DNA of 64,000 bases from an uncultured Spirochaetota bacterium. Its GTDB lineage: Bacteria > Spirochaetota > Spirochaetia > SZUA-6 > Fen-1364. The position numbers and the translations under genes were made by a program. The stretch lies in contig CAWGAA010000001.1 in assembly GCA_963820525.1 (NCBI GenBank), positions 736,001 to 800,000 of the forward strand. The letters are read 5' to 3'. Under the pieces are notes generated by a model that saw only the letters and a list, made by a program, of their open reading frames with translations, had not been told where the DNA came from and ran no database searches. Shown here piece after piece: positions 26,018 through 63,542 of the stretch; positions within the stretch are counted from its first letter, which is position 1, and each line of letters opens with the position of its first letter.

Positions 26018-26076
26018 AAGATTTCTGGTTTGAAGAGAAAGAAAAGAAGGAATTATTGTTAAGAAAATAGTGTCTG

Positions 26077-27162
26077 CCTGAATTCAACCTCGAAGTGCAA
26101 CGATTCTTATTTTTCATGATACACCTCCTGGAGCGTTCTGTAGCCGTGCCGTTTTCTAGGCCTTGAGTTTAGGCTAAAGGCAATCTGCTCGCATAGAGCT
26201 TGAGTGACATCCCTCATGCAGGTTTTCTTTGGAAGATACTGACGGATCAAACCGTTTAGGTTCTCGTTGCTGCCTCGCTCCCAGGAATGATAAGGCGTTG
26301 CAAAGTAGCATTTCAGTTCGGAATGATCCTCCAGGGGCCTGTAGTCATGGAATTCTGTACCGTTGTCCAAGGTGAGTGTCTTGAAGTTGGCTACGTTCTC
26401 CCTAATAGCCGGCAGTGCTGCCTCTGTTACTGAGGCTGCTGTTCTTGAGCTCATTTTCCTTATGATAGCAAATCCCGACTTTCGTTCCACCAGAGTGAGG
26501 ATGCAGTGATGAAGGTCCCTGCCCATGACGGTGTCGCCCTCCCAATGACCCAATTCTTTACGAGTTTCAACCTCTGGAGGCCTCGTTGAAATATGGCGTT
26601 TTCCTGGGAGAATTCCTCTTGAATCCCTTGAATTGTAACGTTTTCGCCGCAGTTTCGGCATGATTCGAAGGTTCTTAAATAGCGTTCCTCCATGTTTCTT
26701 ATCGTTCAGGATGTACTTGTAGATGGTCTCGTGACTGATTGTGAATGATCCATTCTTCTTCTGGTAAGCAGATATCTGTTCAGGGCTCCATTTCTCTTTC
26801 AAAAGAACAGTTACTTGCTGCATTTGTTCTGGGCTGAAGCGCGAACCGCGCCTTTCACGTCGCCGTCTTGCAGTTGAATAGCTTTGGGCAAGCTCAGCTC
26901 GGTACCTCAAGTCATGGTTAGTTCGGTTTCGATGAAGTTCCCTGCTGATCGTGCTAGCTGAGCGACCTAGCTCACGTGCAATGTCAGCTTTAGATCTTCG
27001 GCTTACTAAAAAAGCTGTTATGGTGTATCTTTCTTCTCGAGAGAGTTGGTGATAGTTATTCATGTATGAATCCCCTTTCTTGGCGGAAAATGGAGGCATA
27101 CAATAATATCTCAGCTCTCTCATTTTTAATCCATATCGTTGCGCTTACTATTTGAACCTGCG
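26077..27162 (-). mobile_element. IS30-family element copy 1 (1086 bp; transposase 26107-27123)
   Basis: Imperfect IRs CCTGAATTCAACCTCGAAGTGCAACGAT / CGCAGGTTCAAATAGTAAGCGCAACGAT; CTG duplication; WSPEQI, GHWEGDTV, DNGTEF, WERGSNENLNGLIRQYLPK. Confidence 0.95.
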
Positions 27163-28597
27163 CTGCCTAACATGCTGTTGGAGTTGACCGCCAAGGTTAC
27201 GCTTCGTGACTTTTAACTACGCGCGCTAAAGCCTTTTGTACTTAGATGATTCGGGGCGGCAACTCAACAGCGTCGTTATATCCATCTTGATTTATATTGA
27301 TTAGTGAAGAAGCATAGGATTATTAATTCGATAATAATAAAAGACGTTTTTCAATTGCCTATTTGCCTATGATGGCGTTGACATTGCTCTGTAAGGATGG
27401 CGGTGTTGTACTACATTGCTTGCTTTTCTTTAGTTTCAATACATGGCACGTCACCTCGGCTTGCCAACACCGATTGCATTCAACGGCTCGGATCAAGCTC
27501 CTTCAATTGATTCGATAGATCTTTTCTGCTATCCTCAACGCCATCATACTGGATGGATATAACATGCTGTTGGAGTTGTCCGCCTAGGCTACGCGTCGTT
27601 ACCAATAGCTACGCGCATTGAAGTCTTGGTACTTGGATGATTCGGGGCGGCAACTCAACAGCGTCGTTACATCCACGCTAATAATTTCTTTGAGAGAATA
27701 TTTTGCCTGTTCTGTTTTGAATTATTCAAAGCAAATAAAGAATTCTATTTAGCAATCTTGCAGGTTTTACTTTGGTGAATTCCTCTGATACTTTTGCGCG
27801 GGCCATGTAAGTTCCCATTGGAACAGCTCGCGCCCATTAGCTGAAAGGGTATCATCAACTTTTAACATCATTTTCTTTCGCTATGCCCGAATTCTATCAT
27901 CAATCAATTAACCTTATATTTTCTTTATATCGTGAAGCTTCTTTGCTGGCCCGCGCATATTGTTCTGTTTCCGCGTAGATGTAACATGCTGTTGGAGTTG
28001 TCCGCCTAGGCTACGCGTCGTTACTGATAGCTACGCGTGTTGAAGTATTTGTACTTAGATGATTCGGGGCGGCAACTCAACAGCGTCGTTATATCCATCT
28101 AGATTTATATTGATTAGCAAATAAGCAACGAATTATTAATTCAATAATAGAAGATAAGACGCTTTTCAATAGCTTTTTGCCCATGATGGCGTTGGCATTG
28201 TTCTGGAAGGATGGCGGTGTTGTACTACATTTGGTTGCTTGTTTTTAGTTTCAATGTATGGCACGTCACCTTGGCTTATTATCACCGATTACATTCAACG
28301 GCTCGTATCAAGCTCTTTCAATTGATTCGATAGATCTTTCCTGCTTTCCTCAACGCCATCATACTGGATGGACATAACATGCGGTTGGAGTTGTCCGCCT
28401 AGGTTACGCGTCGTTACTGATTGTTACGCTTGCTATGGTTCCTTCGGTTGCTGATTCGGGGCGGCAACTCAACCGCGTCGTTATACGTTTTAGAAATCGA
28501 AAGCAAAACATTATATTTCAATTTATAAGGTATTTTGTTGACTCCAATCATTTTAAAGCACATCCTATAGTCAGACCTAAACCTTTGCTTAAGTGTT

Positions 28598-29131
28598 ATG
28601 AAATGTTCTGTTTTCATAGCAACAAGCCTTGACGGCTGCATATCACGTGCAAACGGAAACATTGACTGGCTAATTAGCATATCTGATGCAAAAGAAGACT
28701 ATGGATACAATGCTTTTTACCAATCCACAGATTGTCTAGTAATTGGGCGCAAAACATATGAAACAGCCCTGTCATTTGGACAATGGCCTTACGAAAACAA
28801 AAAGGTCATAGTACTCACATCTAATCCGAGTACCATAAACAAGAGATTGGGTTTAGATGTTCAAACGATGTCTTTATCTCCTTTAGAGATTTTAAAAACA
28901 CTAGAATCAAACGGATATAAGCATGCGTATATTGATGGAGGAAAAACAATACAATCCTTTTTAAATGAAGGCCTTATCAATGAAATCACAATTACCTTTA
29001 TACCAATACTAATAGGAGACGGGATCCGATTATTTGGTCCTCTGAATTCCGATATAATACTCAAACACATTGAAACCAAAACTTATTCAAATGGCTTTGT
29101 ACAAATCAAATACGCATTATCAATTTTTTAA
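28598..29131 (+). CDS. Dihydrofolate reductase/RibD C-terminal family protein
   Basis: IATSLDGCI, IGRKTYE, YIDGG, PILIGDGIRLF. Confidence 0.9.
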   Translation: MKCSVFIATSLDGCISRANGNIDWLISISDAKEDYGYNAFYQSTDCLVIGRKTYETALSFGQWPYENKKVIVLTSNPSTINKRLGLDVQTMSLSPLEILKTLESNGYKHAYIDGGKTIQSFLNEGLINEITITFIPILIGDGIRLFGPLNSDIILKHIETKTYSNGFVQIKYALSIF

Positions 29132-29629
29132 ATGACTATAATTTATCAGTATTCATAATTTTAAAACAAAGGAAAACGTATAACATGCTGTTGGAGCAGA
29201 CCGCTTAAGCTACGCGTCGTGACTTATTACTACGCGTGCTAAATTAATTGTTCCTGGTTGATGCGGCGCGGCTGCTCAACTCATTGTTACATCCACGCTA
29301 ATAATTTCTTTGAGAGAATATTTTGCCTGTTCTGTTTTGAATTATTCAAAGCAAATAAAGAATTCTATTTAGCAATCTTGCAGGTTTTACTTTGGTGAAT
29401 TCCTCTGATACTTTTGCTCGGGCCATGTAAGTTCCCATTGGAACAGCTCGCGCCCATTAGCTGAAAGGGCATCATCAACTTTTAACATCATTTTCTTTCG
29501 CTATGCCCGAATTCTATCATCAATCAATTAACCTTATATTTTCTTTATATCGTGAAGCTTCTTTGCTGGCCCGCGCATATTGTTCTGTTTCCGCGTAGAT
29601 GTAACATGCTGTTGGAGTTGACCGCCTAG

Positions 29630-31371
29630 CCCGCATTTCTCACAAACGGCACTCTGCGCAGTCTAATCATCATGAGGCGGGGCTCAACTTTGAAAAACGG
29701 TCTATTCCTTGCTGTCAGCCCCTACACGTAGATCGATTTCGTGACCCGAGTCAGTTCAATCGCCCGATTGAGCGCACTTTACAGTTCATAAGGGAAGATT
29801 CGGCGACTTCAGGACAGTCTTCTCCCAATAAACTACTCAAGACAAGGCTCAATACACGCTAACCCGATTGAAGGGAGAGTTCGTGAATACTCAGAATCAC
29901 CTGACGGAAAAGCTCTTGATATGGATAACCGCTTGCGAAGCTCACATAGATCCGGCGCACACTGACGCGCACCTGTGCGCCAATCTTCAATAGCTTCAAA
30001 CGAATCGTGTCGCACTGTGCCGAGGCCAGCTCTGTCCCCTTCAAAGCGGTCCTTCTGAGGGCACTCATGATTACGTAGGCCGCAGAGGAGAACCACAACC
30101 GAAGCTGATTCGCCCTCATCGTGGCGGAACTGGTTCGATCTGCAAAAAGGTAAAGCTGCTGTTCTTTGATACGATTCTCCATGTCTCCGCGAGCACAATA
30201 GAGCTGCTCGTACAGCTGCTGGCCAGGGAAGCGGTCCTGCATAAGTGAAGTCACCACAAACCGAGGGTTCTCTCCCTTGCGCAGATACTCCGCCTTGGCG
30301 ACAACACGTCTGCTTTTCGACCATGTCTTTTTCGTCCGATAGATCAGCTCCGCGTACTTTCGCGACGGCTCACCAGTGGACAGATACTGCCTGCGGGCTT
30401 CTGAAAGCTCCTTGCGGATCTTGCGTAAGAGGCGTGCGTTTTTCGCGATTCCGAACAGGAAATCCACGTCGTTGGACTCGCACCACACCATGATCGCTTC
30501 CCGGCAGAACCCGCTGTCGGCCCGCACAACAATACGTACCTGCGGCCATCGCTCACGGATCTGCGCAACGATCCTCGCCAACTCCTTCTCGGCACCCGAA
30601 CATGCGTCTATATTGGAGGGACGTAGCTTCGCACATAAAAGATGATCCCCGCAGAAGATGTACAACGGCAGGTAGCAATAACAATCATAATAGCCATGAA
30701 AGAACCTGCCCTCTTGATTGCCGTGCAGAGGGTCGTCGGTTGCATCCAGATCCAACACGATTTCTTCAGGAGCTTGCTCATAACTGGCCAGGAATGTGTT
30801 CACCAGGAACATCCCAACCATTGTTTCGTTCACCGTGATTTTCTTGTATCGATGCGTAGAGAGGCTTGCCCCGCCGGCGGTCTCAAGCCGATTCAGCGTG
30901 CTTTTTCCGGCAAGGGCTTTGCCTCTGTCCCGTTTCTGCCTCCTCGTTTCCCCGTTGACATCGAGTTTCCCGCAAACGGCAGCCAGAACGGGATCTTTGC
31001 GCAGCTGGTCGTGATCGTTGAGGTCTTCGTATCCCAGGCAAATGCCGAATACCCTTTGGCTTATCAATTGCTCGATGGAATGCTCGATATAGCCTTTCTC
31101 TCGATAGTCTGTGAAACAGCCCGCGAATGCTTTGATGATGCCTGTGGCGCGTTCGACCTCTCGAAGAATGAGAGCGCCGGCATCGGAACTGATCGCGCCT
31201 CCGTCGAAGTTTCCGACTACCTTTTTCTTGCCAAGGTCTTGAAAGCTAAACAGGGATGGTGTACAGTCTGTTTGCATCGTATAGCCTTTCTGTTCTGGTT
31301 TATTTTGTTTGTTGCAAAGCAATTATACCAGAGCGAAAGGCTTTTTCATATCCATTTGTGAGAAATGCGGG
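29630..31371 (-). mobile_element. IS1380-family element (type 2) inserted inside an attC site
   Basis: IRs CCCGCATTTCTCACAAA; CTAG duplication at 29626-29 and 31372-75. Confidence 0.93.
29859..31322 (-). CDS. IS1380-family transposase
   Basis: Homologous to 8355-9815; LDLDATDD, RADSGF, RGDMENRIKE. Confidence 0.93.
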   Translation of the reverse strand: MLCNKQNKPEQKGYTMQTDCTPSLFSFQDLGKKKVVGNFDGGAISSDAGALILREVERATGIIKAFAGCFTDYREKGYIEHSIEQLISQRVFGICLGYEDLNDHDQLRKDPVLAAVCGKLDVNGETRRQKRDRGKALAGKSTLNRLETAGGASLSTHRYKKITVNETMVGMFLVNTFLASYEQAPEEIVLDLDATDDPLHGNQEGRFFHGYYDCYCYLPLYIFCGDHLLCAKLRPSNIDACSGAEKELARIVAQIRERWPQVRIVVRADSGFCREAIMVWCESNDVDFLFGIAKNARLLRKIRKELSEARRQYLSTGEPSRKYAELIYRTKKTWSKSRRVVAKAEYLRKGENPRFVVTSLMQDRFPGQQLYEQLYCARGDMENRIKEQQLYLFADRTSSATMRANQLRLWFSSAAYVIMSALRRTALKGTELASAQCDTIRLKLLKIGAQVRVSVRRIYVSFASGYPYQELFRQVILSIHELSLQSG

Positions 31372-32663
31372 CTAGGCTACGCGTCGTTACTGATAGCTAC
31401 GCGTGTTGAAGTATTTGTACTTAGATGATTCGGGGCGGCAACTCAACAGCGTCGTTATCTCCATCTCAATTTATCTTGATTAGAAATGAAGTAAAGAATT
31501 ATTAATTCAATGATCTTTGATAAGACGTTTTTCAATAGCTTGTTTGCACATGATGGCGTTGGCATTGCTCTGGAAGGATGGCGATGTTGTACTACATTGC
31601 CTGCTTGTCTTTAGTTTCAATGCATGGCACGCCACCTTGGCTTATTATCACCGATTACATTCTACGGCTTAGATCAAGCTCTTTCAAATGATTCGCTAGA
31701 TCTTTTCTGCTTTCCTCAACGCCATCATACTGGATGGAGATAACATGTCGTTGCAGCTGACCGCCCAAGTTACGCGTCGTCACTTGAAACTACGCGTTCT
31801 CAGGTATTTCATTTTCTTGAGGCGGGGCGGCAGCTGAACTCCTTGTTATATCCAATCAAATTTATGATGATTAGAAATGATGTAAAGAATTATAATTCAA
31901 TAATATTGGATAGGAGGTTTTTCAATAGATTGCTTTCCCATGATGGCGTTGACATTGCTCTGGAAGGATGGCGGTGTTGTACTACTTTTCATGCTTGTCT
32001 TTAGTTTCAATGCATGGTACGTCACCTTGGCTTATTATCACCGATTACATTCTACGGCTTGGATCAAGCTCTTTCAATTGATTCGCTATATCTTTTCTGC
32101 TTTCCTCAACGCCATCATACTGGATGGATATAACATGCTGTTGGAGTTGACCGCCTAGGCTACGCACCGTGACTAGTAGCTACGCGCGGTAAAACCTTTT
32201 GTACTTGGATGATTCGGGGCGGCAACTCAACAGCGTCGTTACATTCAACGCTAAGAATTCTTTTATAGGAAGATTCCCTTTGTTTTTCTATTATAACTCA
32301 AGATAAATGAAGACTATTCAATTTAGCTATATTGCATATTTTACCTCGTTGAATTCTTGTCTTACTTTTGCGCGGGCCATGTAAGTTCCCATTGGAACAG
32401 CTCGCGCTCATTAGCTGAAAGGGCGTTATTAACCTTTCTGGAATCGTATTCTTTCGCTATTGGTTGAATTCTATCATCAATCAATCAACCTTGTATTTCG
32501 TTCATGTCTTAGACTTCTCTGTTGGCCCGCGCATATTGTTTTGTTTCCGCGTAAATGTAACATTCGGTTGGAGCAGACCGCTTGGGCTACGCATCGTTAC
32601 TAATTGCTACGCTTGCTAAAATAATTGTACCTAGATGATTCGGCGCGGCTGCTCAACCGTGCG

Positions 32664-33000: not shown

Positions 33001-35358
33001 AAGTCGTTGAAGCCGACCCCTTGACGTCCGGCTGAAAGTGTAGCAGCGGATTCGTAACAGCCGTCACGGTTGATCTGATGCGGCGGGGCGGCTTAACTCC
33101 ATGTTATATTCACGCATATTGAAGATTCTTAGATAATTTCAGTATTAGTTCCCTGTATACGTATGCTTGAGTATTGCTATCATAAAGGGCTTTTTTCCTA
33201 TTTGAGTAATGTTGTGAGATTCACCTCTTTCATTTCTTTTCTTTCCTTTGCGCGGGCCCTGGTAGTCACTAGGTCAAAGCTCGCGCCACTCTTTTGGTGG
33301 CCTCTCTTACCTTTTAACCTTGTTTTCTTTCGTTCAAGGTTGAAGTCTAGATTCAACCTGTTGCGGTCAGCTTTTTTCACTCTCTTATAGTTCTCTGCAT
33401 CGGCCCGCGCTAGTCTCTTATGTTTCCGCGTAAATATAACAAGTCGTTGCAGCTGACCGCCTAGGCTACGCGTCGTTAGAAATAACTACGCTCGTTCAAG
33501 TATTTGTTCTTTCTTGATTCGGGGCGGCAGCTGAACTCCATGTTATCTCCATCTAAATTTATATTGATTATCAATGAAGCACCAAATTATCAATTCAAGG
33601 ATATGGTATAAGACTTTTTTCAATTTCATATTTACTCATGATGGCGTTGGCATTGTTCTGGAAGGATGGCGGTGTTGTACTAGTTTGCCTGCTTGTTTTT
33701 AGGTTCAATACACTGCGCGTCACCTTGGCTTATTGTCACCGATTACATTATAGGGCTCGGATCAAGCTCTTTTAATTGATTCGATTGCTCTTTTTCTGCT
33801 TTCCTCAACGCCATCATACTGGATGGAGATAACATGTCGTTGCAGCTGACCGCCCAAGCTACGCGTCGTCACTTAGAACTACGCGCGCTCAGGTATTTCA
33901 TTTTTTTGATACGGGGCGGCAGCTGAACTCCTTGTTACATTCAACGCTAAGAATTCTTTTGTAGGAAGATTCCCTTTGTTTTTCTATTATAACTCAAGAT
34001 AAATGAAGACTATTCAATTTAGCTATATTGCATATTTTACCTCGTTGAATTCTTGTCTTACTTTTGCGCGGGCCATGTAAGTTCCCATTGGAACAGCTCG
34101 CGCTCATTAGCTGAAAGGGCGTTATTAACCTTTCTGGAATCGTATTCTTTCGCTATTGGTTGAATTCTATCATCAATCAATCAACCTTGTATTTCGTTCA
34201 TATCTTAGACTTCTCTGTTGGCCCGCGCATATTGTTTTGTTTCCGCGTAAATGTAACATTCGGTTGGAGCAGACCGCTTGGGCTACGCATCGTTACTAAT
34301 TGCTACGCTTGCTAAAATAATTGTACCTAGATGATTCGGCGCGGCTGCTCAACCGTGCGTTACATTCAACGCTAAGATATATCTTGTGGAATATTCGCTA
34401 TATTCTGCATAGAATCACTCAAGATAAAGAAGACTATACGATTTAGCTTTATATGTTACTTTGTCGAATTCTTGTTTTACTTTTGCGCGGGCCATGTAAG
34501 TTCCCATTGGAACAGCTCGCGCTCATTAGCTTAAAGGGCATTATTACCTTATAAAATCCTTTTATTTCACTATTGGTTGAATTCTATCTTCAATCAACTA
34601 ACCTTATATTTTTATCATATCGTGAAGCTTCTCTGTCGGCCCGCGCATATTGTTCTGTTTCCGCGTAAATGTAACAAGTCGTTGCAGCTGACCGCCTGGG
34701 CTACGCGTCGTTACAAATAATTACGCGTGCTGTAGTATATACACTTTTCCTGATTCGGGGCGGCAGCTGAACTCCATGTTATCTCCATCTAGATTTGTAT
34801 TGATTAGCAATGAAGCAACGTATTATTAATTCAATAATATTGGATAAGACATTTTTCAATAGATTTCTTACCCATGATAGCGTTGTCATTGCTCTGGAAG
34901 GATGGCGGTGTTGTACTAGTTTGCCTGCTTGTTTTTAGTTTCAATACACTGCACGTCACCTTGGCTTGTTGGTAACGATTACATTTTAGGGCTCGGATCA
35001 AGCTCTTTCAATTGATTCAATAGATCTTTTCTGCTTTCCTCAACGCCATCATACTTGATGGAGATAACATGTCGTTGCAGCTGACCGCCCAAGCTACGCG
35101 TCGTCACTTAGAACTACGCGTGCTCAGGTATTTCCTCTTTTTGAGGCGGGGCGGCAGCTGAACTCCTTGTTATATCCACGCTAAAGAAATTCTTTGGGAG
35201 AATGTTTTGCTTGTTCTGTTTTGAATTACTCAAAGCAAATAAAGAATTCTCTTTCACAATCTTGCGGGTTTTACCTTGTTGAATTCTTTTGATACCTTTG
35301 CGCGGGCCATCTACGTTCCTGTTGGAACAGCTCGCGCACGTTAGCTAAAGGGGCATTA

Positions 35359-37465: not shown

Positions 37466-38551
37466 CCTGAATTCAACCTCGAAGTGCAACGATTCTTATT
37501 TTTCATGATACACCTCCTGGGGCGTTCTGTAGCCGTGCCGTTTTCTAGGCCTTGAGTTTAGGCTAAAGGCAATCTGCTCGCATAGAGCTTGAGTGACATC
37601 CCTCATGCAGGTTTTCTTTGGAAGATACTGACGGATCAAACCGTTTAGGTTCTCGTTGCTGCCTCGCTCCCAGGAATGATAAGGCGTTGCAAAGTAGCAT
37701 TTCAGTTCGGAATGATCCTCCAGGGTCCTGTAGTCATGGAATTCTGTACCGTTGTCCAAGGTGAGTGTCTTGAAGTTGGCTACGTTCTCCCTAATAGCCG
37801 GCAGTGCTGCCTCTGTTACTGAGGCTGCTGTTCTTGAGCTCATTTTCCTTATGATAGCAAATCCCGACTTTCGTTCCACCAGAGTGAGGATGCAGTGATG
37901 AAGGTCCCTGCCCATGACGGTGTCGCCCTCCCAATGACCCAATTCTTTACGAGTTTCAACCTCTGGAGGCCTCGTTGAAATATGGCGTTTTCCTGGGAGA
38001 ATTCCTCTTGAATCCCTTGAATTGTAACGTTTTCGCCGCAGTTTCGGCATGATTCGAAGGTTCTTAAATAGCGTTCCTCCATGTTTCTTATCGTTCAGGA
38101 TGTACTTGTAGATGGTCTCGTGACTGATTGTGAATGATCCATTCTTCTTCTGGTAAGCAGATATCTGTTCAGGGCTCCATTTCTCTTTCAAAAGAACAGT
38201 TACTTGCTGCATTTGTTCTGGGCTGAAGCGCGAACCGCGCCTTTCACGTCGCCGTCTTGCAGTTGAATAGCTTTGGGCAAGCTCAGCTCGGTACCTCAAG
38301 TCATGGTTAGTTCGGTTTCGATGAAGTTCCCTGCTGATCGTGCTAGCTGAGCGACCTAGCTCACGTGCAATGTCAGCTTTAGATCTTCGGCTTACTAAAA
38401 AAGCTGTTATGGTGTATCTTTCTTCTCGAGAGAGTTGGTGATAGTTATTCATGTATGAATCCCCTTTCTTGGCGGAAAATGGAGGCATACAATAATATCT
38501 CAGCTCTCTCATTTTTAATCCATATCGTTGCGCTTACTATTTGAACCTGCG
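37466..38551 (-). mobile_element. IS30-family element copy 2 (transposase 37496-38512)
   Basis: Same IRs; AAA duplication. Confidence 0.95.
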
Positions 38552-40299
38552 AAATATAACAAGTCGTTGCAGCTGACCGCCTAGGCTACGCGTCGTTAGA
38601 AATAACTACGCTCGTTCAAGTATTTGTTCTTTCTTGATTCGGGGCGGCAGCTGAACTCCATGTTATATCCAATCAAATTTATGGTGATTAGCAATGAATT
38701 AAAGAATTATTAATTCAATAATATTGGAGAAGATGTTTTTCAATAGCTTCCTTTCACATGATGGCGTTGGCATTTGGCGGGAAGGTTGGCGGCGTTGTAC
38801 TACATTGCCTGCTTATCTTTAGCTTCAATTCATGGCACGTCACTTTGGCTTGTTATCACCGATTACATTCAACGGCTCAGATCAAGCTCTTTCAAATGAT
38901 TCGATAGATCTTTTCTGCTTTCCTCAACGCCATCATACCTGATGGATATAACATGCGGTTGGAGTTGTCCGCCTATGTCACGCTTCGTTACATTTTGTTT
39001 CATTTGCTAGGGTTCCTTCGGTTGATGATTCGGGGCGGCAACTCAACAGCGTCGTTATATTCACGCATATTGAAGATTCTTAGATAATTTCAGTATTAGT
39101 TCCCTGTATACGTATGCTTGAGTATTGCTATCCTAAAGGGCTTTTTTCCTATTTGAGTAATGTTGTGAGATTCACCTCTTTCATTTCTTTTCTTTCCTTT
39201 GCGCGGGCCCTGGTAGTCACTAGGTAAAAGCTCGCGCCACTCTTTTGGTGGCCTCTATTACCTTTTAACCTTGTTTTCTTTCGTTCAAGGTTGAAGTCTA
39301 GATTCAACCTGTTGCGGTCAGCTTTTTTCACTCTCTTATAGTTCTCTGCATCGGCCCGCGCTAGTCTCTTATGTTTCCGCGTAAATATAACAAGTCGTTG
39401 CAGCTGACCGCCTAGGCTACGCGTCGTTAGAAATAACTACGCTCGTTCAAGTATTTGTTCTTTCTTGATTCGGGGCGGCAGCTGAACTCCATGTTATCTC
39501 TATCTAGATTTATATTGGTTAGCAATGAAGTTAAGAATTATTAATTCAATAATCTTGGATAAGACGTTTTTCACTAGCTTGCTTTCCCATGATGGCGTTG
39601 GCTTTGCTCTGGAAGGATGGCGGTGTTGTACTAGGGTGCATGCTTATTTTTAGTTTCAATACTCTGCACATCACCTTGGCTTATTATCACCGATTGCATT
39701 CTACGGCTCGTATCAAGCTCTTTCAATTGATTCGCTAGATCTTTTCTGCTTTCCGCAACGCCATCATACTGGATAGAGATAACATGTCGTTGCAGCTGAC
39801 CGCCTAGGATACGCGTCATCACTGATAATTACGCGCGCTCAAGTATTTGTTTTTCCTATGCGGGGCGGCAGCTGAACTCTGTGTTATATCCAATCAAATT
39901 TATGATGATTAGAAATGATGTAAAGAATTATAATTCAATAATATTGGATAGGAGGTTTTTCAATAGATTGCTTTCCCATGATGGCGTTGACATTGCTCTG
40001 GAAGGATGGCGGTGTTGTACTACTTTTCATGCTTGTCTTTAGTTTCAATGCATGGTACGTCACCTTGGCTTATTATCACCGATTACATTCTACGGCTTGG
40101 ATCAAGCTCTTTCAATTGATTCGCTATATCTTTTCTGCTTTCCTCAACGCCATCATACTGGATGGATATAACATGCTGTTGGAGTTGACCGCCTAGGCTA
40201 CGCTTCGTTGCCATTGACTACGCGCGTTGAAGCAATTGTACTTGGATGATTCGGGGCGGCAACTCAACAGCGTCGTTAGCCTGCTTTAAGGATGAGAAA

Positions 40300-44989: not shown

Positions 44990-44997
44990 ATTTGCCG

Positions 44998-46083
44998 CCT
45001 GAATTCAACCTCGAAGTGCAACGATTCTTATTTTTCATGATACACCTCCTGGGGCGTTCTGTAGCCGTGCCGTTTTCTAGGCCTTGAGTTTAGGCTAAAG
45101 GCAATCTGCTCGCATAGAGCTTGAGTGACATCCCTCATGCAGGTTTTCTTTGGAAGATACTGACGGATCAAACCGTTTAGGTTCTCGTTGCTGCCTCGCT
45201 CCCAGGAATGATAAGGCGTTGCAAAGTAGCATTTCAGTTCGGAATGATCCTCCAGGGTCCTGTAGTCATGGAATTCTGTACCGTTGTCCAAGGTGAGTGT
45301 CTTGAAGTTGGCTACGTTCTCCCTAATAGCCGGCAGTGCTGCCTCTGTTACTGAGGCTGCTGTTCTTGAGCTCATTTTCCTTATGATAGCAAATCCCGAC
45401 TTTCGTTCCACCAGAGTGAGGATGCAGTGATGAAGGTCCCTGCCCATGACGGTGTCGCCCTCCCAATGACCCAATTCTTTACGAGTTTCAACCTCTGGAG
45501 GCCTCGTTGAAATATGGCGTTTTCCTGGGAGAATTCCTCTTGAATCCCTTGAATTGTAACGTTTTCGCCGCAGTTTCGGCATGATTCGAAGGTTCTTAAA
45601 TAGCGTTCCTCCATGTTTCTTATCGTTCAGGATGTACTTGTAGATGGTCTCGTGACTGATTGTGAATGATCCATTCTTCTTCTGGTAAGCAGATATCTGT
45701 TCAGGGCTCCATTTCTCTTTCAAAAGAACAGTTACTTGCTGCATTTGTTCTGGGCTGAAGCGCGAACCGCGCCTTTCACGTCGCCGTCTTGCAGTTGAAT
45801 AGCTTTGGGCAAGCTCAGCTCGGTACCTCAAGTCATGGTTAGTTCGGTTTCGATGAAGTTCCCTGCTGATCGTGCTAGCTGAGCGACCTAGCTCACGTGC
45901 AATGTCAGCTTTAGATCTTCGGCTTACTAAAAAAGCTGTTATGGTGTATCTTTCTTCTCGAGAGAGTTGGTGATAGTTATTCATGTATGAATCCCCTTTC
46001 TTGGCGGAAAATGGAGGCATACAATAATATCTCAGCTCTCTCATTTTTAATCCATATCGTTGCGCTTACTATTTGAACCTGCG
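44998..46083 (-). mobile_element. IS30-family element copy 3 (transposase 45028-46044)
   Basis: Same IRs; CCG duplication. Confidence 0.95.
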
Positions 46084-46246
46084 CCGTCTAACATGCTGTT
46101 GGAGTTGACCCCTGGAATTTCAATTTGAACTGCTGCTTGCTTCTCGGACTCTACTGTAGCTTGGCCCTTCGGGCGGCGGGGCAACTCAACAGCGTTGTTA
46201 TGTGGATATAAGTTACTTCTAGTATATTAGGTTATAGGAGAATACT

Positions 46247-54624: not shown

Positions 54625-54629
54625 AACAA

Positions 54630-55715
54630 CCTGAATTCAACCTCGAAGTGCAACGATTCTTATTTTTCATGATACACCTCCTGGGGCGTTCTGTAGCCGT
54701 GCCGTTTTCTAGGCCTTGAGTTTAGGCTAAAGGCAATCTGCTCGCATAGAGCTTGAGTGACATCCCTCATGCAGGTTTTCTTTGGAAGATACTGACGGAT
54801 CAAACCGTTTAGGTTCTCGTTGCTGCCTCGCTCCCAGGAATGATAAGGCGTTGCAAAGTAGCATTTCAGTTCGGAATGATCCTCCAGGGTCCTGTAGTCA
54901 TGGAATTCTGTACCGTTGTCCAAGGTGAGTGTCTTGAAGTTGGCTACGTTCTCCCTAATAGCCGGCAGTGCTGCCTCTGTTACTGAGGCTGCTGTTCTTG
55001 AGCTCATTTTCCTTATGATAGCAAATCCCGACTTTCGTTCCACCAGAGTGAGGATGCAGTGATGAAGGTCCCTGCCCATGACGGTGTCGCCCTCCCAATG
55101 ACCCAATTCTTTACGAGTTTCAACCTCTGGAGGCCTCGTTGAAATATGGCGTTTTCCTGGGAGAATTCCTCTTGAATCCCTTGAATTGTAACGTTTTCGC
55201 CGCAGTTTCGGCATGATTCGAAGGTTCTTAAATAGCGTTCCTCCATGTTTCTTATCGTTCAGGATGTACTTGTAGATGGTCTCGTGACTGATTGTGAATG
55301 ATCCATTCTTCTTCTGGTAAGCAGATATCTGTTCAGGGCTCCATTTCTCTTTCAAAAGAACAGTTACTTGCTGCATTTGTTCTGGGCTGAAGCGCGAACC
55401 GCGCCTTTCACGTCGCCGTCTTGCAGTTGAATAGCTTTGGGCAAGCTCAGCTCGGTACCTCAAGTCATGGTTAGTTCGGTTTCGATGAAGTTCCCTGCTG
55501 ATCGTGCTAGCTGAGCGACCTAGCTCACGTGCAATGTCAGCTTTAGATCTTCGGCTTACTAAAAAAGCTGTTATGGTGTATCTTTCTTCTCGAGAGAGTT
55601 GGTGATAGTTATTCATGTATGAATCCCCTTTCTTGGCGGAAAATGGAGGCATACAATAATATCTCAGCTCTCTCATTTTTAATCCATATCGTTGCGCTTA
55701 CTATTTGAACCTGCG
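54630..55715 (-). mobile_element. IS30-family element copy 4 (transposase 54660-55676)
   Basis: Same IRs; CAA duplication. Confidence 0.95.
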
Positions 55716-55863
55716 CAACCTAACATGCTGTTGGAGTTGACCGCCTAGGCTACTCTTCGTTACCAATAACTACGCGCATTAAATAATTTGTACTTGGATG
55801 AATCGGGGCGGCAACTCAACAGCGTCGTTACGCGCTCATAAATTAAACACATTGTGAAAATAG

Positions 55864-56556: not shown

Positions 56557-56692
56557 GCGCGTAACATGCTGTTGGAGTTGACCGCCCAGGCTACGCTTCG
56601 TTACCAATAACTACGCGCGGTAAAGCCTTTTGTACTTTTATGATTCGGGGCGGCAACTCAACAGCGTCGTTAGACGTTTCTAGGAGCCTGAA

Positions 56693-57436: not shown

Positions 57437-57548
57437 CATGTCGTTGGAGCAGACCGCTTGAACTACGCTTCGTTACTGATAGCTACGCTTGCTAAAGTAC
57501 ATATACTTTTCTGATGCGGCGCGGCTGCTCAACTCAATGTTATATGGC

Positions 57549-58184
57549 TTATTTTGAGCTCACAGCTTTTGCTCCGTTCTTAATTATTTCATAACGCGAA
57601 TGAATCATTCCTTCAGCATCAATTGAACCCATTTTTCTCAATTGAATCGCTTCATCACCTATATTTTCAAATAGCTTAACCCCATCACCTATCAAAATCG
57701 GAGCTATATGTAGATATATTTCATCTACCAGACCAGCTCTTAATGCTTGTTGTGCAACGCTTGCGCTGCCAATTCCTACATATCTCTCTTTAGCAAGCTC
57801 CTTAGCTTTACTAACTGCTGAAATAATTCCATCAGTAACAAATAAAATTGTTGATTTGCCTTTAGGAACATCTTTAGGCGGATTATGAGTCAGAATAATA
57901 ATAGGGATTCCATTAACAGGATGTGTACCATTCCATCCATTGGCAATCTCATATGTCTTGCGCCCAGTTAGCATAGCACCAGCTTTTTTGTACATTTCGG
58001 CAACGATTTTTCTATTGTTGCCTTTAGGCTTAAACATAGTATTCTCATATGGTTTTTCATCTTCAAAGTACCAATCAAATATATGCTCACCGCCACGACC
58101 ACCGAGGGGAAATTCACGACTATCTCCTGGTCCAGCAATGTATCCATCCAAAGATATTGATAAATCAATGACAACCTTTGCCAT
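57549..58184 (-). CDS. Dihydrofolate reductase/RibD C-terminal family protein (reverse-oriented cassette gene)
   Basis: SISLDGYIAG, GRKTYE, GLVDEIYLHIAPILIGDGVKLF. Confidence 0.9.
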   Translation of the reverse strand: MAKVVIDLSISLDGYIAGPGDSREFPLGGRGGEHIFDWYFEDEKPYENTMFKPKGNNRKIVAEMYKKAGAMLTGRKTYEIANGWNGTHPVNGIPIIILTHNPPKDVPKGKSTILFVTDGIISAVSKAKELAKERYVGIGSASVAQQALRAGLVDEIYLHIAPILIGDGVKLFENIGDEAIQLRKMGSIDAEGMIHSRYEIIKNGAKAVSSK

Positions 58185-58283
58185 TTCAAGACCTCCAATA
58201 ACTCATATAGTTTAAGAACTAATATTCTATTGATTAACAATTTACTAAAACTAGTTGGTATTTGTAAAATAATATGAAAGCCA

Positions 58284-59369
58284 CCTGAATTCAACCTCGA
58301 AGTGCAACGATTCTTATTTTTCATGATACACCTCCTGGGGCGTTCTGTAGCCGTGCCGTTTTCTAGGCCTTGAGTTTAGGCTAAAGGCAATCTGCTCGCA
58401 TAGAGCTTGAGTGACATCCCTCATGCAGGTTTTCTTTGGAAGATACTGACGGATCAAACCGTTTAGGTTCTCGTTGCTGCCTCGCTCCCAGGAATGATAA
58501 GGCGTTGCAAAGTAGCATTTCAGTTCGGAATGATCCTCCAGGGTCCTGTAGTCATGGAATTCTGTACCGTTGTCCAAGGTGAGTGTCTTGAAGTTGGCTA
58601 CGTTCTCCCTAATAGCCGGCAGTGCTGCCTCTGTTACTGAGGCTGCTGTTCTTGAGCTCATTTTCCTTATGATAGCAAATCCCGACTTTCGTTCCACCAG
58701 AGTGAGGATGCAGTGATGAAGGTCCCTGCCCATGACGGTGTCGCCCTCCCAATGACCCAATTCTTTACGAGTTTCAACCTCTGGAGGCCTCGTTGAAATA
58801 TGGCGTTTTCCTGGGAGAATTCCTCTTGAATCCCTTGAATTGTAACGTTTTCGCCGCAGTTTCGGCATGATTCGAAGGTTCTTAAATAGCGTTCCTCCAT
58901 GTTTCTTATCGTTCAGGATGTACTTGTAGATGGTCTCGTGACTGATTGTGAATGATCCATTCTTCTTCTGGTAAGCAGATATCTGTTCAGGGCTCCATTT
59001 CTCTTTCAAAAGAACAGTTACTTGCTGCATTTGTTCTGGGCTGAAGCGCGAACCGCGCCTTTCACGTCGCCGTCTTGCAGTTGAATAGCTTTGGGCAAGC
59101 TCAGCTCGGTACCTCAAGTCATGGTTAGTTCGGTTTCGATGAAGTTCCCTGCTGATCGTGCTAGCTGAGCGACCTAGCTCACGTGCAATGTCAGCTTTAG
59201 ATCTTCGGCTTACTAAAAAAGCTGTTATGGTGTATCTTTCTTCTCGAGAGAGTTGGTGATAGTTATTCATGTATGAATCCCCTTTCTTGGCGGAAAATGG
59301 AGGCATACAATAATATCTCAGCTCTCTCATTTTTAATCCATATCGTTGCGCTTACTATTTGAACCTGCG
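58284..59369 (-). mobile_element. IS30-family element copy 5 (transposase 58314-59330)
   Basis: Same IRs; CCA duplication. Confidence 0.95.
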
Positions 59370-59936
59370 CCATATAACATGCTGTTGGAGTTGACCGCCC
59401 AGGTTCCTGGCCTTTCGAATGATTCTTCTTGCTAGGGTTTCTTCGGTTGCTGATTCGGGGCGGCAACTCAACAGCGTCGTTACATCCACGCTAATAATTT
59501 CTTTGAGAGAATATTTTGCCTATTCTGTTTTGAATTATTCAAAGCAAATAAAGAATTCGATTTAGCAATCTTGCAGGTTTTACTTTGTTGAATTCCTCTG
59601 ATACTTTTGCGCGGGCCATGTAAGTTCCCATTGGAACAGCTTGCGCCCATTAGCTGAAAGGGCATCATCAACTTTTAACATCATTTTCTTTCGCTATGCC
59701 CGAATTCTATCATCAATCAACTAACCTTATATTTTCTTCATATCGTGAAGCTTCTTTGCTGGCCCGCGCATATTGTTCTGTTTCCGCGTAGATGTAACAT
59801 GCGGTTGGAGCAGACCGCTTGGACTACGCGTCGTTACTGATTGCTACGCAAGTTAAAGTAATTGTACCTGTATGATACGGCGCGGCTGCTCAACCGCGTC
59901 GTTATGCGTCATTCTATTCACGCCTTGAGGTATAGT

Positions 59937-60422
59937 ATGATCGATGAGATAGCAGCTGCGTTCCGCGAGACACTGCAGATGTTCGAGGACGGGATTCATA
60001 AAATACCAGATGAGTACTGGCGGCAGGGGAGCGGCGACTTCCTTATTCCTGCACGTATCGCCTACCATATCATGATTGGATTGGAGTGGTTTGTCACATC
60101 ATTACCGGAAGATGAGCACCGGAAGACACGCCGCTATAACCTTAATTGGAAAGGGCCAGTCAAAGATTTGCCTGACCGACAGGTGATGCTCGAAGATTTT
60201 GCCTGGATTAGCGGACGCATTTTGGAGTGGTTTTCTGACTGGGAGCGCGAATCGGTGGAAGGTGTGGAACATCCATTCCGATTAAATAAGGCGCTCTACT
60301 TCCTACGGCACACCCAACACCACGTTGGAGAATTTTCCGCTACGGCCCGACTTCTTTATTTAGAGCGTCCCTCTTGGATCTACCCTAAAACTGTGCCGGA
60401 CTCGATTAGAAATAATCCGTAA
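59937..60422 (+). CDS. DinB-family protein
   Basis: IPDEYW...IAYH...LRHTQHHVGE; GAGG RBS before ATG 59937. Confidence 0.8.
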   Translation: MIDEIAAAFRETLQMFEDGIHKIPDEYWRQGSGDFLIPARIAYHIMIGLEWFVTSLPEDEHRKTRRYNLNWKGPVKDLPDRQVMLEDFAWISGRILEWFSDWERESVEGVEHPFRLNKALYFLRHTQHHVGEFSATARLLYLERPSWIYPKTVPDSIRNNP

Positions 60423-61230
60423 AATATTGAAAGGACTATACAGTTATTCCTAATAGCTTAAGACAAATATGAATTAATTAATTCCATTTAAAATCATCTA
60501 AGATTTAGATGAATGTTATTATTTCAATATATTAGAGAATTGATGATAAAATGACGCATAACATGCTGTTGGAGTTGTCCGCCTAGGCTACGCTTCGTTA
60601 CTGATAGCTACGCGCATTGAAGCACCTGTACCTGGATGATTCGGGGCGGCAACTCAACAGCGTCGTTATATCCAATCTAGATTTATATTGATTATCGAAT
60701 AGGCAACGAATTAGTAATTCAATAAAAAGAGATAATACGTGTTTCAATAGCTTGTTTAACCATGATGGCGTTGGCATTGGGCGGGAAGGATGGCGGTGTT
60801 GTACTAATGTTGCTTGCTTGCTCTTAGTTTCAATACACTGCACGTCACCGTGGCTTAATGGTCAACGATTTCATTATAGGGCTCGGATCAAGCTCTTTCT
60901 CTTGAAACAACAACTCTTTTCTGTTGTCCTCAACGCCATCATACTGGATGGATATAACATGCTGTTGGAGTTGTCCGCCTAGGCTACGCGTCGTTACTTA
61001 TAGCTACGTTTGCTAGGGTTCCTTCGGTTGCTGATTCGGGGCGGCAACTCAACAGCGTCGTTATGTCTCATCAAAGCTGTTTTCCACGTCGTTCGTCGCG
61101 TGTCAGGCTATTCAGTTCCGCCACATACATGTATGAACAAGCGCGGGCAATATCGCGGTTGCTTTACCCTGCCGTTCCAAGATATACTGTGAACTGCGAT
61201 TTATCCTTTTGAGAGGACGTTCAGAGCAGT

Positions 61231-61800
61231 ATGACTGTTTGCCAACTCAAATTGACTGTTAAGCATATTGAGCCTCAGATCTGGAGGAGGATACTGATCC
61301 ATCCAGAAATCACGCTCAAGCGGCTTCATCAAATCATTCAGAAACTTATGGGATGGTACGATTACCACCTCTACCAATTCCGAATCAAGCAACAGTACTT
61401 CGCCCCTCCAGGAGAGGAAATCGATCTGATGGCGAGGAGACCGCAGTCCGTCAATGTGCCGGTTTCATGGCTTTTGACCTACGGCGTCAAGAGTTTCGTT
61501 TACGAATACGACTTTGGAGATGGCTGGGAAATAAACATCAGAATCGAAAGAAAACTTGAGAAACCGGACTTCAATCAAGCGGCCGTTTGCATAGATGGTA
61601 AACGGTCCGGTCCGCTTGAAGACAGCGGCGGTCCATTCGGATATATGGAAAAACTTGAAATTATGAAAGATCCGAACCATGAAGAATACGCCGAACTGTC
61701 GGAGTGGATGCCACCTAATTACGACGCGGATAGATTCGACGTTGAAGCTGTTAACAAGCTACTTGCAAGACTTAAGCCGCCAAGATCTAAAGTCATCTGA
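61231..61800 (+). CDS. Plasmid pRiA4b ORF-3 family protein
   Basis: IWRRILI, LHQIIQKLMGWYDYHLYQF, YEYDFGDGW, PLEDSGG. Confidence 0.92.
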   Translation: MTVCQLKLTVKHIEPQIWRRILIHPEITLKRLHQIIQKLMGWYDYHLYQFRIKQQYFAPPGEEIDLMARRPQSVNVPVSWLLTYGVKSFVYEYDFGDGWEINIRIERKLEKPDFNQAAVCIDGKRSGPLEDSGGPFGYMEKLEIMKDPNHEEYAELSEWMPPNYDADRFDVEAVNKLLARLKPPRSKVI

Positions 61801-61884
61801 GATCTTAGGATGTATCTGAGAATATTCTTGTATTTGAATTAAGCATTACCTCTCGATAAGTTGCATGTCTTATTCTGGATGAGA

Positions 61885-62970
61885 CCTGAATTCAACCTCG
61901 AAGTGCAACGATTCTTATTTTTCATGATACACCTCCTGGGGCGTTCTGTAGCCGTGCCGTTTTCTAGGCCTTGAGTTTAGGCTAAAGGCAATCTGCTCGC
62001 ATAGAGCTTGAGTGACATCCCTCATGCAGGTTTTCTTTGGAAGATACTGACGGATCAAACCGTTTAGGTTCTCGTTGCTGCCTCGCTCCCAGGAATGATA
62101 AGGCGTTGCAAAGTAGCATTTCAGTTCGGAATGATCCTCCAGGGTCCTGTAGTCATGGAATTCTGTACCGTTGTCCAAGGTGAGTGTCTTGAAGTTGGCT
62201 ACGTTCTCCCTAATAGCCGGCAGTGCTGCCTCTGTTACTGAGGCTGCTGTTCTTGAGCTCATTTTCCTTATGATAGCAAATCCCGACTTTCGTTCCACCA
62301 GAGTGAGGATGCAGTGATGAAGGTCCCTGCCCATGACGGTGTCGCCCTCCCAATGACCCAATTCTTTACGAGTTTCAACCTCTGGAGGCCTCGTTGAAAT
62401 ATGGCGTTTTCCTGGGAGAATTCCTCTTGAATCCCTTGAATTGTAACGTTTTCGCCGCAGTTTCGGCATGATTCGAAGGTTCTTAAATAGCGTTCCTCCA
62501 TGTTTCTTATCGTTCAGGATGTACTTGTAGATGGTCTCGTGACTGATTGTGAATGATCCATTCTTCTTCTGGTAAGCAGATATCTGTTCAGGGCTCCATT
62601 TCTCTTTCAAAAGAACAGTTACTTGCTGCATTTGTTCTGGGCTGAAGCGCGAACCGCGCCTTTCACGTCGCCGTCTTGCAGTTGAATAGCTTTGGGCAAG
62701 CTCAGCTCGGTACCTCAAGTCATGGTTAGTTCGGTTTCGATGAAGTTCCCTGCTGATCGTGCTAGCTGAGCGACCTAGCTCACGTGCAATGTCAGCTTTA
62801 GATCTTCGGCTTACTAAAAAAGCTGTTATGGTGTATCTTTCTTCTCGAGAGAGTTGGTGATAGTTATTCATGTATGAATCCCCTTTCTTGGCGGAAAATG
62901 GAGGCATACAATAATATCTCAGCTCTCTCATTTTTAATCCATATCGTTGCGCTTACTATTTGAACCTGCG
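61885..62970 (-). mobile_element. IS30-family element copy 6 (transposase 61915-62931)
   Basis: Same IRs; AGA duplication. Confidence 0.95.
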
Positions 62971-63542
62971 AGACATAACATGCTGTTGGAGTTGACCGCC
63001 TAGATTCCTGGCCTTTCGTGAAATCCCTCTTGCTAGAGTTCGCTTCGCGTTGCTGATTCGGGGCGGCAACTCAACAGCGTCGTTATCTCCATCTAAAATT
63101 TTGTTGATTAGCAATGAAGCAACAAATTAATAATTCAATAATATAGGATAAAACGTTTTTCAATTTCATGTTTGCCCATGATGGCGTTGGCATTGCTCTG
63201 GAAGGATGGCGGTGTTGTACTACATTGCCTGCTTGTCTTTAGTTTCAAGGCATGGCACGCCACCTTGGCTTATTATCACTGATTACATTCTACGGCTTAG
63301 ATCAAGCTCTTTCAAATGATTCGCTAGATCTTTTCTGCTTTCCTCAACGCCATCATACTGGATGGAGATAACATGTCGTTGCAGCTGACCGCCCAAGTTA
63401 CGCGTCGTCACTTGAAACTACGCGTTCTCAGGTATTTCATTTTCTTGAGGCGGGGCGGCAGCTGAACTCCTTGTTAGGCAGCCACAAGAGAGCTATTTCA
63501 TATATCCTTGAGTTTCTCTTCTCACGTTTCCGGGTAGAATAT

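Follow-up and report, generated by a model that had tools for sequence, protein, structure and literature searches.

The window, a stretch of 64,000 nucleotides from the genome of an uncultivated spirochaete, carries part of an integron cassette array with six copies of an insertion sequence (IS). The IS is 1086 bp long, with imperfect terminal repeats and 3-bp target site duplications (TSDs). The copies, the attC sites beside them and the unoccupied counterparts of one target are as follows.

26077..27162, minus strand: IS copy 1; transposase ORF 26107-27123; TSD CTG at 26074-26076 and 27163-27165
27165..27281, plus strand: attC at copy 1; R'' GCCTAAC ... R' GTTATAT; two 1-nt bulges on the IS-proximal arm
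33432..33434 and 39383-39385, plus strand: unoccupied target triplet AAA in two paralogues of the copy-2 cassette
37466..38551, minus strand: IS copy 2; ORF 37496-38512; TSD AAA
38554..38668, plus strand: attC at copy 2; R'' ATATAAC; second attC subtype, AAGTCGTTGCAGCTGACC
44998..46083, minus strand: IS copy 3 (reference copy); ORF 45028-46044; TSD CCG
about 44998-45023 and about 46058-46083: IRR and IRL ends, respectively, of copy 3
46086..46203, plus strand: attC at copy 3; R'' GTCTAAC; empty paralogue at C1:692204
54630..55715, minus strand: IS copy 4; ORF 54660-55676; TSD CAA
55718..55833, plus strand: attC at copy 4; R'' ACCTAAC
58284..59369, minus strand: IS copy 5; ORF 58314-59330; TSD CCA
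59372..59485, plus strand: attC at copy 5; R'' ATATAAC
61885..62970, minus strand: IS copy 6; ORF 61915-62931; TSD AGA
62973..63088, plus strand: attC at copy 6; R'' ACATAAC

The original prediction had placed six minus-strand copies beside R'', and all six coordinates, the TSDs and the NN-TAAC of the attC R'' that follows each right-hand TSD (6/6 window copies) were reproduced. The differing 3-bp duplications, the unrelated flanks upstream of the six copies and the use of two attC subtypes (at least two by our count) were also seen again. Copies 2-6 are identical, and copy 1 has 2 nucleotide differences from them, which result in T263P and P331L, the two residue changes that had been noticed in one of six otherwise identical transposases. 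Eight of the nine copies in the genome are identical, in agreement with the recent spread that had been suggested.

The element is an IS30-family IS with a DDE transposase, as had been proposed. In a profile search, the 338-residue transposase scored 294.3 bits against the IS30 NCBIfam equivalog NF033563 (cut-off 80), and it contains the Pfam domains HTH_38 (residues 24-66), HTH_32 (85-137) and rve (189-280). The catalytic triad D197, D253 and E287 is invariant in 66, 66 and 65, respectively, of 66 aligned subfamily members; about 33-34 residues separate the second D from the E in IS30-family DDE triads. The two imperfect ends share the IR core TTCA...AAG(T/C)GCAACGAT, and the ends are borne out by three reference-genome contigs, each of exactly 1083 bp, and by one read-derived contig of exactly 1086 bp. 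The size, terminal repeats and TSDs lie within the ranges of the family (about 1-1.25 kb, about 20-30 bp and 2-3 bp). Membership of the IS1111-attC group was considered and rejected, since the transposase is of the rve/DDE type and has no IS110-family profile match, and TSDs are present. No abutted IR-IR junction was seen in the read-derived contigs, which cannot show rare forms. An active, recently expanded IS is the best explanation for the home element.

The genome has nine copies, three of them outside the window, and all lie within one integron array of about 141 kb with about 178 co-oriented attCs, each of 112-120 nt. Two IntI genes in the genome score above the TIGR02249 cut-off of 265, and the 178 attCs lie downstream of one of them, at C1:682092-683030 (410.7 bits), with the array beginning at 683764. 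These are attCs of an integron, with inverted R''/R' cores closing an imperfect hairpin, in an array adjacent to the integrase gene.

All nine copies have one orientation, and 3 bp separate IRL from the GTTRRR core of R''. IRL faces the attC, and the transposase gene, on the attC bottom strand, reads away from it. The 3-bp staggered cut spans two bases outside R'' and the first base of RYYYAAC; the last TSD base is therefore the R of the 7-bp core, which is regenerated intact. The precision of the insertion can be seen from the empty paralogues, ...ccgcgtAAA|TATAAC at 33432 and 39383 of the window and ...gatttgCCG|TCTAAC at C1:692204. The attC sequences of filled and empty paralogous cassettes are identical, which confirms the original prediction that the 7-bp R'' is left intact. 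The prediction that the attC, rather than the sequence at the cut, determines the position also holds in 9/9 copies, in which the TSDs and upstream flanks vary and the distance to R'' is constant, and in most relatives. The element ignores the sequence beyond the insertion point on the side away from the attC. Across the genome there are 1864 occurrences of the five R'' 6-mers in use, of which about 125 are at R'', yet 9/9 insertions are at R'', so chance is excluded. None of the 118 R' sites bearing the same 6-mers in the home genome has an insertion. Ten different flanking triplets in the home genome indicate about 10 independent events.

It is exceedingly improbable that there is no targeting at all, and that the pattern comes from one IS-bearing cassette multiplied by IntI or by duplication, or from random insertions that selection then sorted. 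Cassettes are duplicated within the home array and the IS copies are nearly identical, but each copy is bordered by a TSD of its own and, upstream, by an unrelated cassette of its own, and two of the filled cassettes have empty paralogues. Furthermore, selection would be unable to fix one nucleotide position in an array that is dispensable and rich in non-coding DNA, and the same junction is seen again in unrelated genomes and metagenomes.

The element prefers GTTAGR cores within its array: 5 of 16 are occupied, versus 4 of 158 other cores (Fisher p = 3.5e-4). The copies are confined to the distal part of the array (9/62 sites vs 0/112 elsewhere), a clustering that is not accounted for by the sequence of the target by itself. 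The nine occupied attCs fold with the R box paired, and two 1-nt bulges are found on the IS-proximal arm in 9/9. Single-base bulges, or extrahelical bases, define the R''-L'' arm, according to the available text of PMC2727003.

The subfamily members are 50-75% identical and include the named elements ISVa6 and ISVvu6. The one-genome-per-species references contain 261 relatives, and we estimate that about 200 metagenome stretches carry one IRL variant. Among GTDB genomes, GTT is found at -9 to -7 in 47/64 distinct IRL flanks, with GTTAGR in 30, and 37 of the 65 reference flanks of at least 110 nt have an attC-like fold with a paired R box. The metagenome flanks were chosen solely by the 22-nt IRL core; 84 of the 109 distinct flanks have GTT at this offset, and 74 have GTTAGR, for which about 0.05% would be expected. 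The attC fold test, which is home-made and is not the model of IntegronFinder for either set, was passed by 51/91 metagenome flanks, and in a crude count the IS-proximal arm of the metagenome attCs has more single-base bulges than its partner in 34, fewer in 11 and the same number in 6. In Vibrio, 13/17 flanks of ISVa6 and ISVvu6 (two records) have GTTA at the offset. The flank consensus presumably resembles the attC form of many resistance cassettes. An IntI above the cut-off was found in 5/5 host genomes tested, versus 0/14 control genomes.

Mapping of all genomic copies and homologues relative to attC, as had been proposed, places 9/9 home copies and most relatives at R''. Relatives with the same R''-edge placement span at least eight phyla, and the trait is scattered across every clade of the subfamily tree. 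Homing to attC is a trait of a large subfamily and not of one IS; that it is site-specific and driven by the transposase, leaving the sub-mechanism apart, is highly probable from the sequences compared. The R''-edge specificity of the subfamily is not absolute, with no GTT at the offset in 17/64 genome, 25/109 metagenome and 4/17 Vibrio flanks. A few sites are apparently unrelated to attC; among them, L018 lies beside a terminator-like hairpin, and at L223 the site is plain and the TSD matches. The TSDs of the GTDB relatives are identical in 22/41 and mismatched in 19/41, and 11/16 are mismatched in the Vibrio flanks. Since about half of the relatives' TSDs are mismatched, many present-day junctions have been reshuffled.

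There is a second determinant: counted from the junction, GTC stands at -26 to -24 in 61/81 GTT-class flanks and 12/25 non-GTT flanks, over a background of 1.3% per position. The feature is not significant in the home array, 9/138 vs 0/36 (p = 0.21). The G-T-C at these positions is often kept where R'' is missing.

Sequence, hairpin structure and integrase tethering had been proposed as possible routes of targeting. We suggest that the R''-L'' arm is read by the transposase itself, probably by means of the two helix-turn-helix domains near its N-terminus. It would recognise an asymmetric signal in two parts, GTTAGR at -9 to -4 and G-T-C at -26 to -24, and the T of G-T-C would be the conserved extrahelical base of attC. 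A copied-out circle would then be pasted at the target, as for IS30 at its hot spots. In the available text of PMC9333248, IS30 is described as transposing by copy-out-paste-in with sequence-specific hot-spot targeting, and an N-terminal H-HTH motif is needed for hot-spot targeting, as cited in PMC1525189. That the transposase would read this signal in duplex DNA has, in our estimate, about an even chance of being correct. Because GTC and GTTRRR are both features of attC, their enrichment does not tell whether the bases are read directly or a hairpin or IntI is recognised.

It is quite possible, though we lean against it, that the duplex is not read, and that the transposase recognises the attC fold, as a bottom-strand hairpin or extruded cruciform, or is recruited by IntI or by a replication factor bound there. 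The roles of GTTRRR and of the extrahelical T would then be limited to defining the structure or complex. Taken separately, it would be unlikely that a hairpin or cruciform of the folded bottom strand is recognised, and decidedly unlikely that the transposase is tethered to IntI or another host factor. One 22-nt IRL core serves attCs with widely differing L'', in which only the features that IntI needs are shared, and insertions occur solely at R'' despite R' and R'' being mirror images in sequence; strand-specific extrahelical bases distinguish the strands for IntI, in the available text of PMC2727003. In addition, the off-target copy L018 adjoins a terminator-like hairpin, some non-GTT flanks still close a hairpin at the junction, and IntI is present in all five host genomes tested. 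However, DDE copy-out-paste-in elements integrate into duplex DNA, and the spacing GTC-N14-GTTAGR is unique to the R'' arm and can separate the arms in duplex. The favouring of GTTAGR over GTTATN in one array points to base reading, and 10 of 22 folded non-GTT flanks have no closing helix.

The 3-bp spacing between R'' and IRL, equal to the TSD length, would also be expected if R'' acted as a pseudo-IRR in IR-targeting, with R''-3 bp-IRL mimicking the IRR-spacer-IRL junction of the transposition intermediate. IR-targeting by IS30 gives exclusively IRL-IRR junctions, according to the available text of PMC9333248, and here IRL is always beside R''. The IRR tips ...CTAGG, ...CTAAG and ...TCAGG resemble the ...TTAGG of R'', but in a visual end-anchored comparison, made without statistics, the likeness ends after 3-4 tip bases and the rest is chance-like. 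Clean TSDs indicate instead a simple hot-spot-type insertion, and the same text describes IR-targeting as a separate reaction with single-strand transfer. We regard R'' as very unlikely to act as a pseudo-IRR.

To our knowledge, the only attC-specialised parasites recognised in print are the IS1111-attC elements and the group IIC-attC introns. The IS1111-attC elements insert inside attC, whereas the home element is found at the outer edge of R'' and leaves the attC whole. As far as the available parts of the citing papers describe it, the IS1111-attC group of IS110/IS1111 (Tetu & Holmes 2008 and Post & Hall 2009, cited in PMC3971601, PMC11089894 and PMC12444791) also consists of ISs that home to attC in one orientation and live within cassette arrays. 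However, these have a DEDD transposase and make no target duplication, in contrast to the DDE (rve) and HTH domains and 3-bp TSDs of the home element. A guide RNA (seekRNA) is described for the IS110/IS1111 family in the available text of PMC11187229. The group IIC-attC introns, in the available text of PMC3001079, are likewise an attC-specialised lineage of a larger mobile family with one orientation, but they are retroelements that use reverse splicing, whereas the home IS has no RNA component and a different chemistry. Escherichia coli IS30, as described in the available text of PMC9333248, shares with the home element its family, short TSDs, sequence-specific targets and the predicted circle or dimer intermediate, and its IR-targeting has a strict orientation. 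Its targets are nearly palindromic hot spots cut mid-site, or its own IRs, with a TSD of 2 bp, whereas the home element uses an asymmetric arm of a foreign recombination site, with insertion at the edge and a TSD of 3 bp. ISVa6 and ISVvu6 are of the same subfamily (about 52% protein identity), with the same IRL core and R''-side flanks in Vibrio, but they are about 48% diverged from the home element and adjoin Vibrio-type attCs. ISVa6 is named in the available text of PMC4572688, and no target preference is stated for either element in the open-access full text searched.

The original prediction had cited no IS30 (DDE) example of attC targeting, and we likewise found no description of IS30-family attC homing in open-access full text. 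IS30-type attC homing thus appears to be undescribed, and it appears to let a mobile element live inside gene cassettes. A nucleotide-precise, oriented DDE IS at the R'' edge is a mechanistically different class of attC parasite, and the homing appears to be common, even among named Vibrio elements whose preference has apparently gone unremarked. It makes a tractable question of how a helix-turn-helix/DDE transposase separates R'' from its mirror image R'. More tentatively, and with some doubt, we propose that this DDE lineage may read attC as IntI does, telling R'' from R' by the way the extrahelical bases are placed in the folded bottom strand, or by bound IntI. The hundreds of subfamily elements, which are spread over at least eight phyla and include ISVa6 and ISVvu6 of Vibrio superintegrons, would then be obligate integron parasites that ride in cassettes and reshape arrays. 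If true, attC homing would have arisen independently once more, beyond IS1111 and the group IIC introns, and this would be a rare case of a copy-out-paste-in IS that is guided to its target by a structure or by a partner.

In Gram-negative bacteria, integrons are the principal system for capturing genes. The IRL junction of these elements can serve as an annotation marker that points to an attC. With the IS within the cassette boundaries, it could travel as cassette cargo, and its copies would supply homology for rearrangement of the array. Deletions and rearrangements of this kind would be part of array dynamics, as in the mismatched duplications of the relatives and of Vibrio, and mobile integrons could in principle also harbour attC-homing IS30-type elements.

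Repeat finding and direct comparison place six copies of the IS at window positions 26077, 37466, 44998, 54630, 58284 and 61885, as had been read from the sequence. Each copy is 1086 bp long, has imperfect terminal inverted repeats, and is bounded by perfect 3-bp direct repeats that are specific to the copy (CTG, AAA, CCG, CAA, CCA, and AGA, in order), in agreement with the original prediction. The transposase and the integrase of the array, on contig C1, are:

Window, within each of the six copies; minus strand; transposase ORF of 338 codons
C1:682092-683030; integron integrase, matching TIGR02249 with 410.7 bits (cut-off 265)

The transposase has Pfam matches to HTH_38, HTH_32 and rve, and the NCBIfam IS30 equivalog matches it with 294 bits (cut-off 80), which bears out the IS30 assignment. 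An alignment of 66 relatives shows the catalytic residues D197, D253 and E287 to be invariant; four further rows (L078, L079, L081 and L084) were excluded from it because their ORF was mis-called and their branch very long. Copies 2-6 are identical in sequence, and copy 1 has two substitutions, resulting in T263P and P331L. The 338-codon ORF begins about 20 codons upstream of the start in most relatives (317-320 aa; window 46044-45984), and the internal Met in MNNYHQL may be the real start of the transposase. In a public sediment run, one contig of exactly 1086 nt is the IS itself, with a depth of 27.8 vs 4.6-5.8 for the flanks, confirming the IS ends and the multi-copy state. The read-derived contigs are short, and none spans the IS to give the empty site or contains an IRR-IRL junction, which has no bearing on whether the IS is active. 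A 200-nt contig from a wetland metagenome in a separate study is identical to part of the IS (window 45397-45596), so the IS or a very close copy occurs outside the source sample.

The constant junction proposed earlier is present to the right of all six copies: the duplicated triplet (TSD), NN, TAAC, and then the remainder of the attC (about 115 nt), ending in GTTAY. The upstream flanks are unrelated to one another, also as predicted. The TSD ends on the R of RYYYAAC, the core of R''; thus, the cut covers two bases outside R'' and the first base of R''. The insertion regenerates the 7-bp core, and R'' is left intact, as anticipated. The unfilled site ...ccgcgtAAA-TATAAC (the hyphen marks the insertion point) occurs four times in IS-free paralogous cassettes, including window 33432 and 39383, and ...gatttgCCG-TCTAAC is found in an IS-free paralogous cassette at C1:692204. 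The attCs of the filled and empty paralogues are identical. The insertions are separate events, and they are precise.

The genome is 5.05 Mb in four contigs, with a G+C content of 60%, vs 44% for the array and 47% for the IS. Mapping of all genomic copies gave nine, which all fall within the 762-823 kb stretch of C1, in one orientation and with one junction. A profile built from the nine IS-adjoining attCs finds 178 co-oriented sites at C1:683764-824376 (about 141 kb). Five further matches accompany a second integrase at about 1.95 Mb, and five are elsewhere. The second integron has IntI at C1:1954228-1955157 and five attCs, and stray attC-like sites are located on contigs C2 and C3. The host is an uncultivated spirochaete, whose nearest relative with a related IS is a MAG of the Spirochaetota. 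Its main array, within which window 1-64000 (C1:736001-800000) falls, is a very large chromosomal integron. Dozens of short, near-repeated cassettes (about 390-420 bp; e.g., window 27557-27672 and 28372-28486), spread over C1:684869-817877, account for much of the array. They end in ...ctggatgg-A(T/G/C)ATAAC or ...ccgcgta(g/a)-AT(G/A)TAAC, and the IS is absent from every ctggatgg-type short cassette of the array. Four cassettes are present near both ends of the array (C1:699201-706170 and 810000-816698) with 91-99% identity, in reversed order and in the same orientation, the pattern that excision followed by re-insertion at attI would leave. GC skew on the four-contig assembly gives too weak a signal to assign the attC bottom strand to the leading-strand or lagging-strand template.

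Five different R'' 6-mers adjoin the insertions; in the outward direction on the bottom strand, they read GTTAGG, GTTAGA, GTTATA, GTTATG and GTTACA. The genome contains 1864 instances of these five, about 125 of them at R'' and 118 at R', the mirror image of R'' in these attCs, and the insertions are at R'' in 9/9 cases and never at R'. The site choice therefore goes beyond chance and beyond the 6-mer alone. Across the array, GTTAGR cores are occupied in 5/16 cases vs 4/158 for other cores (Fisher p = 3.5e-4). The copies are confined to the integrase-distal part (C1:762077-822543; 9/62 attCs vs 0/112 in the proximal part, 683764-761471; p = 6e-5), where occupancy is 5/7 for GTTAGR vs 4/55 for the others; the nine proximal GTTAGR cores are all empty. 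Local hopping and turnover of proximal cassettes are our guesses for the distal bias.

The attC habit is a trait of a subfamily. Relatives were collected by a protein-guided scan with one genome per species, which found 261, of which the best 80 (49-75% identical) were kept. In these best 80 of 261, the IRL is conserved as CGCGGATTCA-nnn-AGTAAGTGCAA, and three reference-genome contigs of exactly 1083 bp consist of the IS alone. Counting negatively from the IS junction into the attC on the bottom strand, GTT is found at -9 to -7 in 47 of the 64 distinct IRL flanks of this set; GTTAGR is seen in 30/64 and GTTA[G/T]N in 39/64. Identical 3-bp repeats are present in 22 of the 41 relatives for which both ends were found. 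When flanks of at least 110 nt were folded with DNA parameters, taking AAC with GTT as the R box, the box closed over 57-143 nt in 37/65. Another 12/65 have GTT only, several being obvious attCs overlooked by the minimum-energy fold, and 16/65 have neither feature, two of them displaced by one base. IntI scores above cut-off in 5/5 tested host genomes vs 0/14 control genomes. The least biased sample comes from metagenomes, scanned with a 22-nt core of the IRL as a query blind to the flank; this returned 120 stretches of an estimated 200 or so. GTT is at the offset in 84/109 distinct flanks and GTTAGR in 74/109, against an expectation of about 0.05% for GTTAGR.

Every clade of the tree has attC-adjacent members (Spirochaetota, Beta-/Gammaproteobacteria, Gemmatimonadota, Acidobacteriota, Verrucomicrobiota, and Cyanobacteriota). 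The attC-adjacent state is not clustered on the subfamily tree (21 changes vs a shuffled mean of 23), and no clade boundary for it was found inside the sampled tree. We read attC adjacency as ancestral with sporadic exceptions. GTTRRR is absent beside both IS18-like copies checked (42% identical), two being too few to set a subfamily boundary. The proteins of the Vibrio elements ISVa6 and ISVvu6 are about 52% identical to the IS transposase, with 14 and 7 copies in one V. campbellii and one V. vulnificus record, respectively, and 13/17 distinct Vibrio flanks adjoin R'' of Vibrio attCs. These copies (L223-L243; NZ_CP050465.1 and NZ_CP016323.1) are clustered, with nine within 50 kb and four within 27 kb, and seven are on one 40.8-kb record filed as a plasmid. 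In open-access full text, we found no published link between IS30-family elements and attC. The passages on attC targeting in recent integron papers cite IS1111-attC elements alone (PMC11089894, PMC12444791), the portion of the paper that names ISVa6 states no target (PMC4572688), and IS elements in arrays are discussed with no mention of IS30 in PMC4889954 and PMC11023631.

What distinguishes R'' from R'? The flank consensus is cGtCcgcTtgA.cG..TTGTTAGgC, which we interpret as the R''-L'' arm that attC sites usually have on the bottom strand. In 9/9 home attCs, the fold places two single-base bulges on the IS-proximal arm, and among 51 folded metagenome attCs, the excess of unpaired bases is proximal in 34, distal in 11, and equal in 6. 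Extrahelical bases define the R''-L'' arm (PMC2727003). G-T-C is located at -26 to -24 in 61/81 GTT flanks and 12/25 non-GTT flanks, against a background of 1.3% per position, and the T of this triplet bulges out in the folds. Since the duplex R' arm has no such T and has shorter spacing than the R'' arm, a bipartite duplex reader could tell the arms apart. They could also be separated by IntI or by a protein that reads the folded strand, and recognition of the attC structure or tethering by IntI is a serious rival explanation for the insertion site. Folding of 22 non-GTT metagenome flanks gave a closing helix at the junction in 12 and none in 10, a split that favours neither structure nor sequence.

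IS30 transposes by a copy-out-paste-in route via an IR-IR junction, and its targets are either near-palindromic hot spots, with a 2-bp duplication, or its own IRs, giving IRL-IRR junctions exclusively (PMC9333248). The use of R'' as a pseudo-IRR is a weaker rival; the attC arm, compared visually with IRR or IRL from the ends, resembles them over only 3-4 nt at the tip. A TTGAA/TTCAA likeness between the attC arm and the IS ends, also judged visually, is offset by about 6 nt at the sites in betaproteobacteria and missing in the home genome. Binding to the hot spot requires the N-terminal H-HTH motif (cited in PMC1525189). By analogy, we favour hot-spot-type insertion, in which the HTH region of the transposase would read GTC-N14-GTTAGR. 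Hot-spot-type insertion fits the clean TSDs and the GTTAGR preference; the duplication is 3 bp for the attC-homing IS and 2 bp for the IS30 hot spot.

The IS is located between the cassette gene and the attC, within the cassette boundaries. With this position and the identical attCs of filled and empty paralogues, it is plausible that the IS travels as cassette cargo. Copies 8 and 9, at C1:818156 and C1:821458 (together C1:818156-822543, beyond the end of the window), have mismatched triplets, GGA-IS-GAG and GAG-IS-AAG, and so attest to three insertions with a later exchange between IS copies. One original insertion accounts for both the right flank of copy 8 and the left flank of copy 9. The 2.2 kb between the two copies is circularly permuted, with an attC, one cassette, and then the body of the interrupted cassette, implying either that the IS copies recombined or that a circle of two cassettes re-integrated. 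In Vibrio, matching repeats are present in just 5/16, and the 11/16 non-matching 3-bp flanks suggest extensive IS-mediated reshuffling of the cassette arrays. The mismatched duplications show that copies of the IS drive array rearrangements, both here and in Vibrio.
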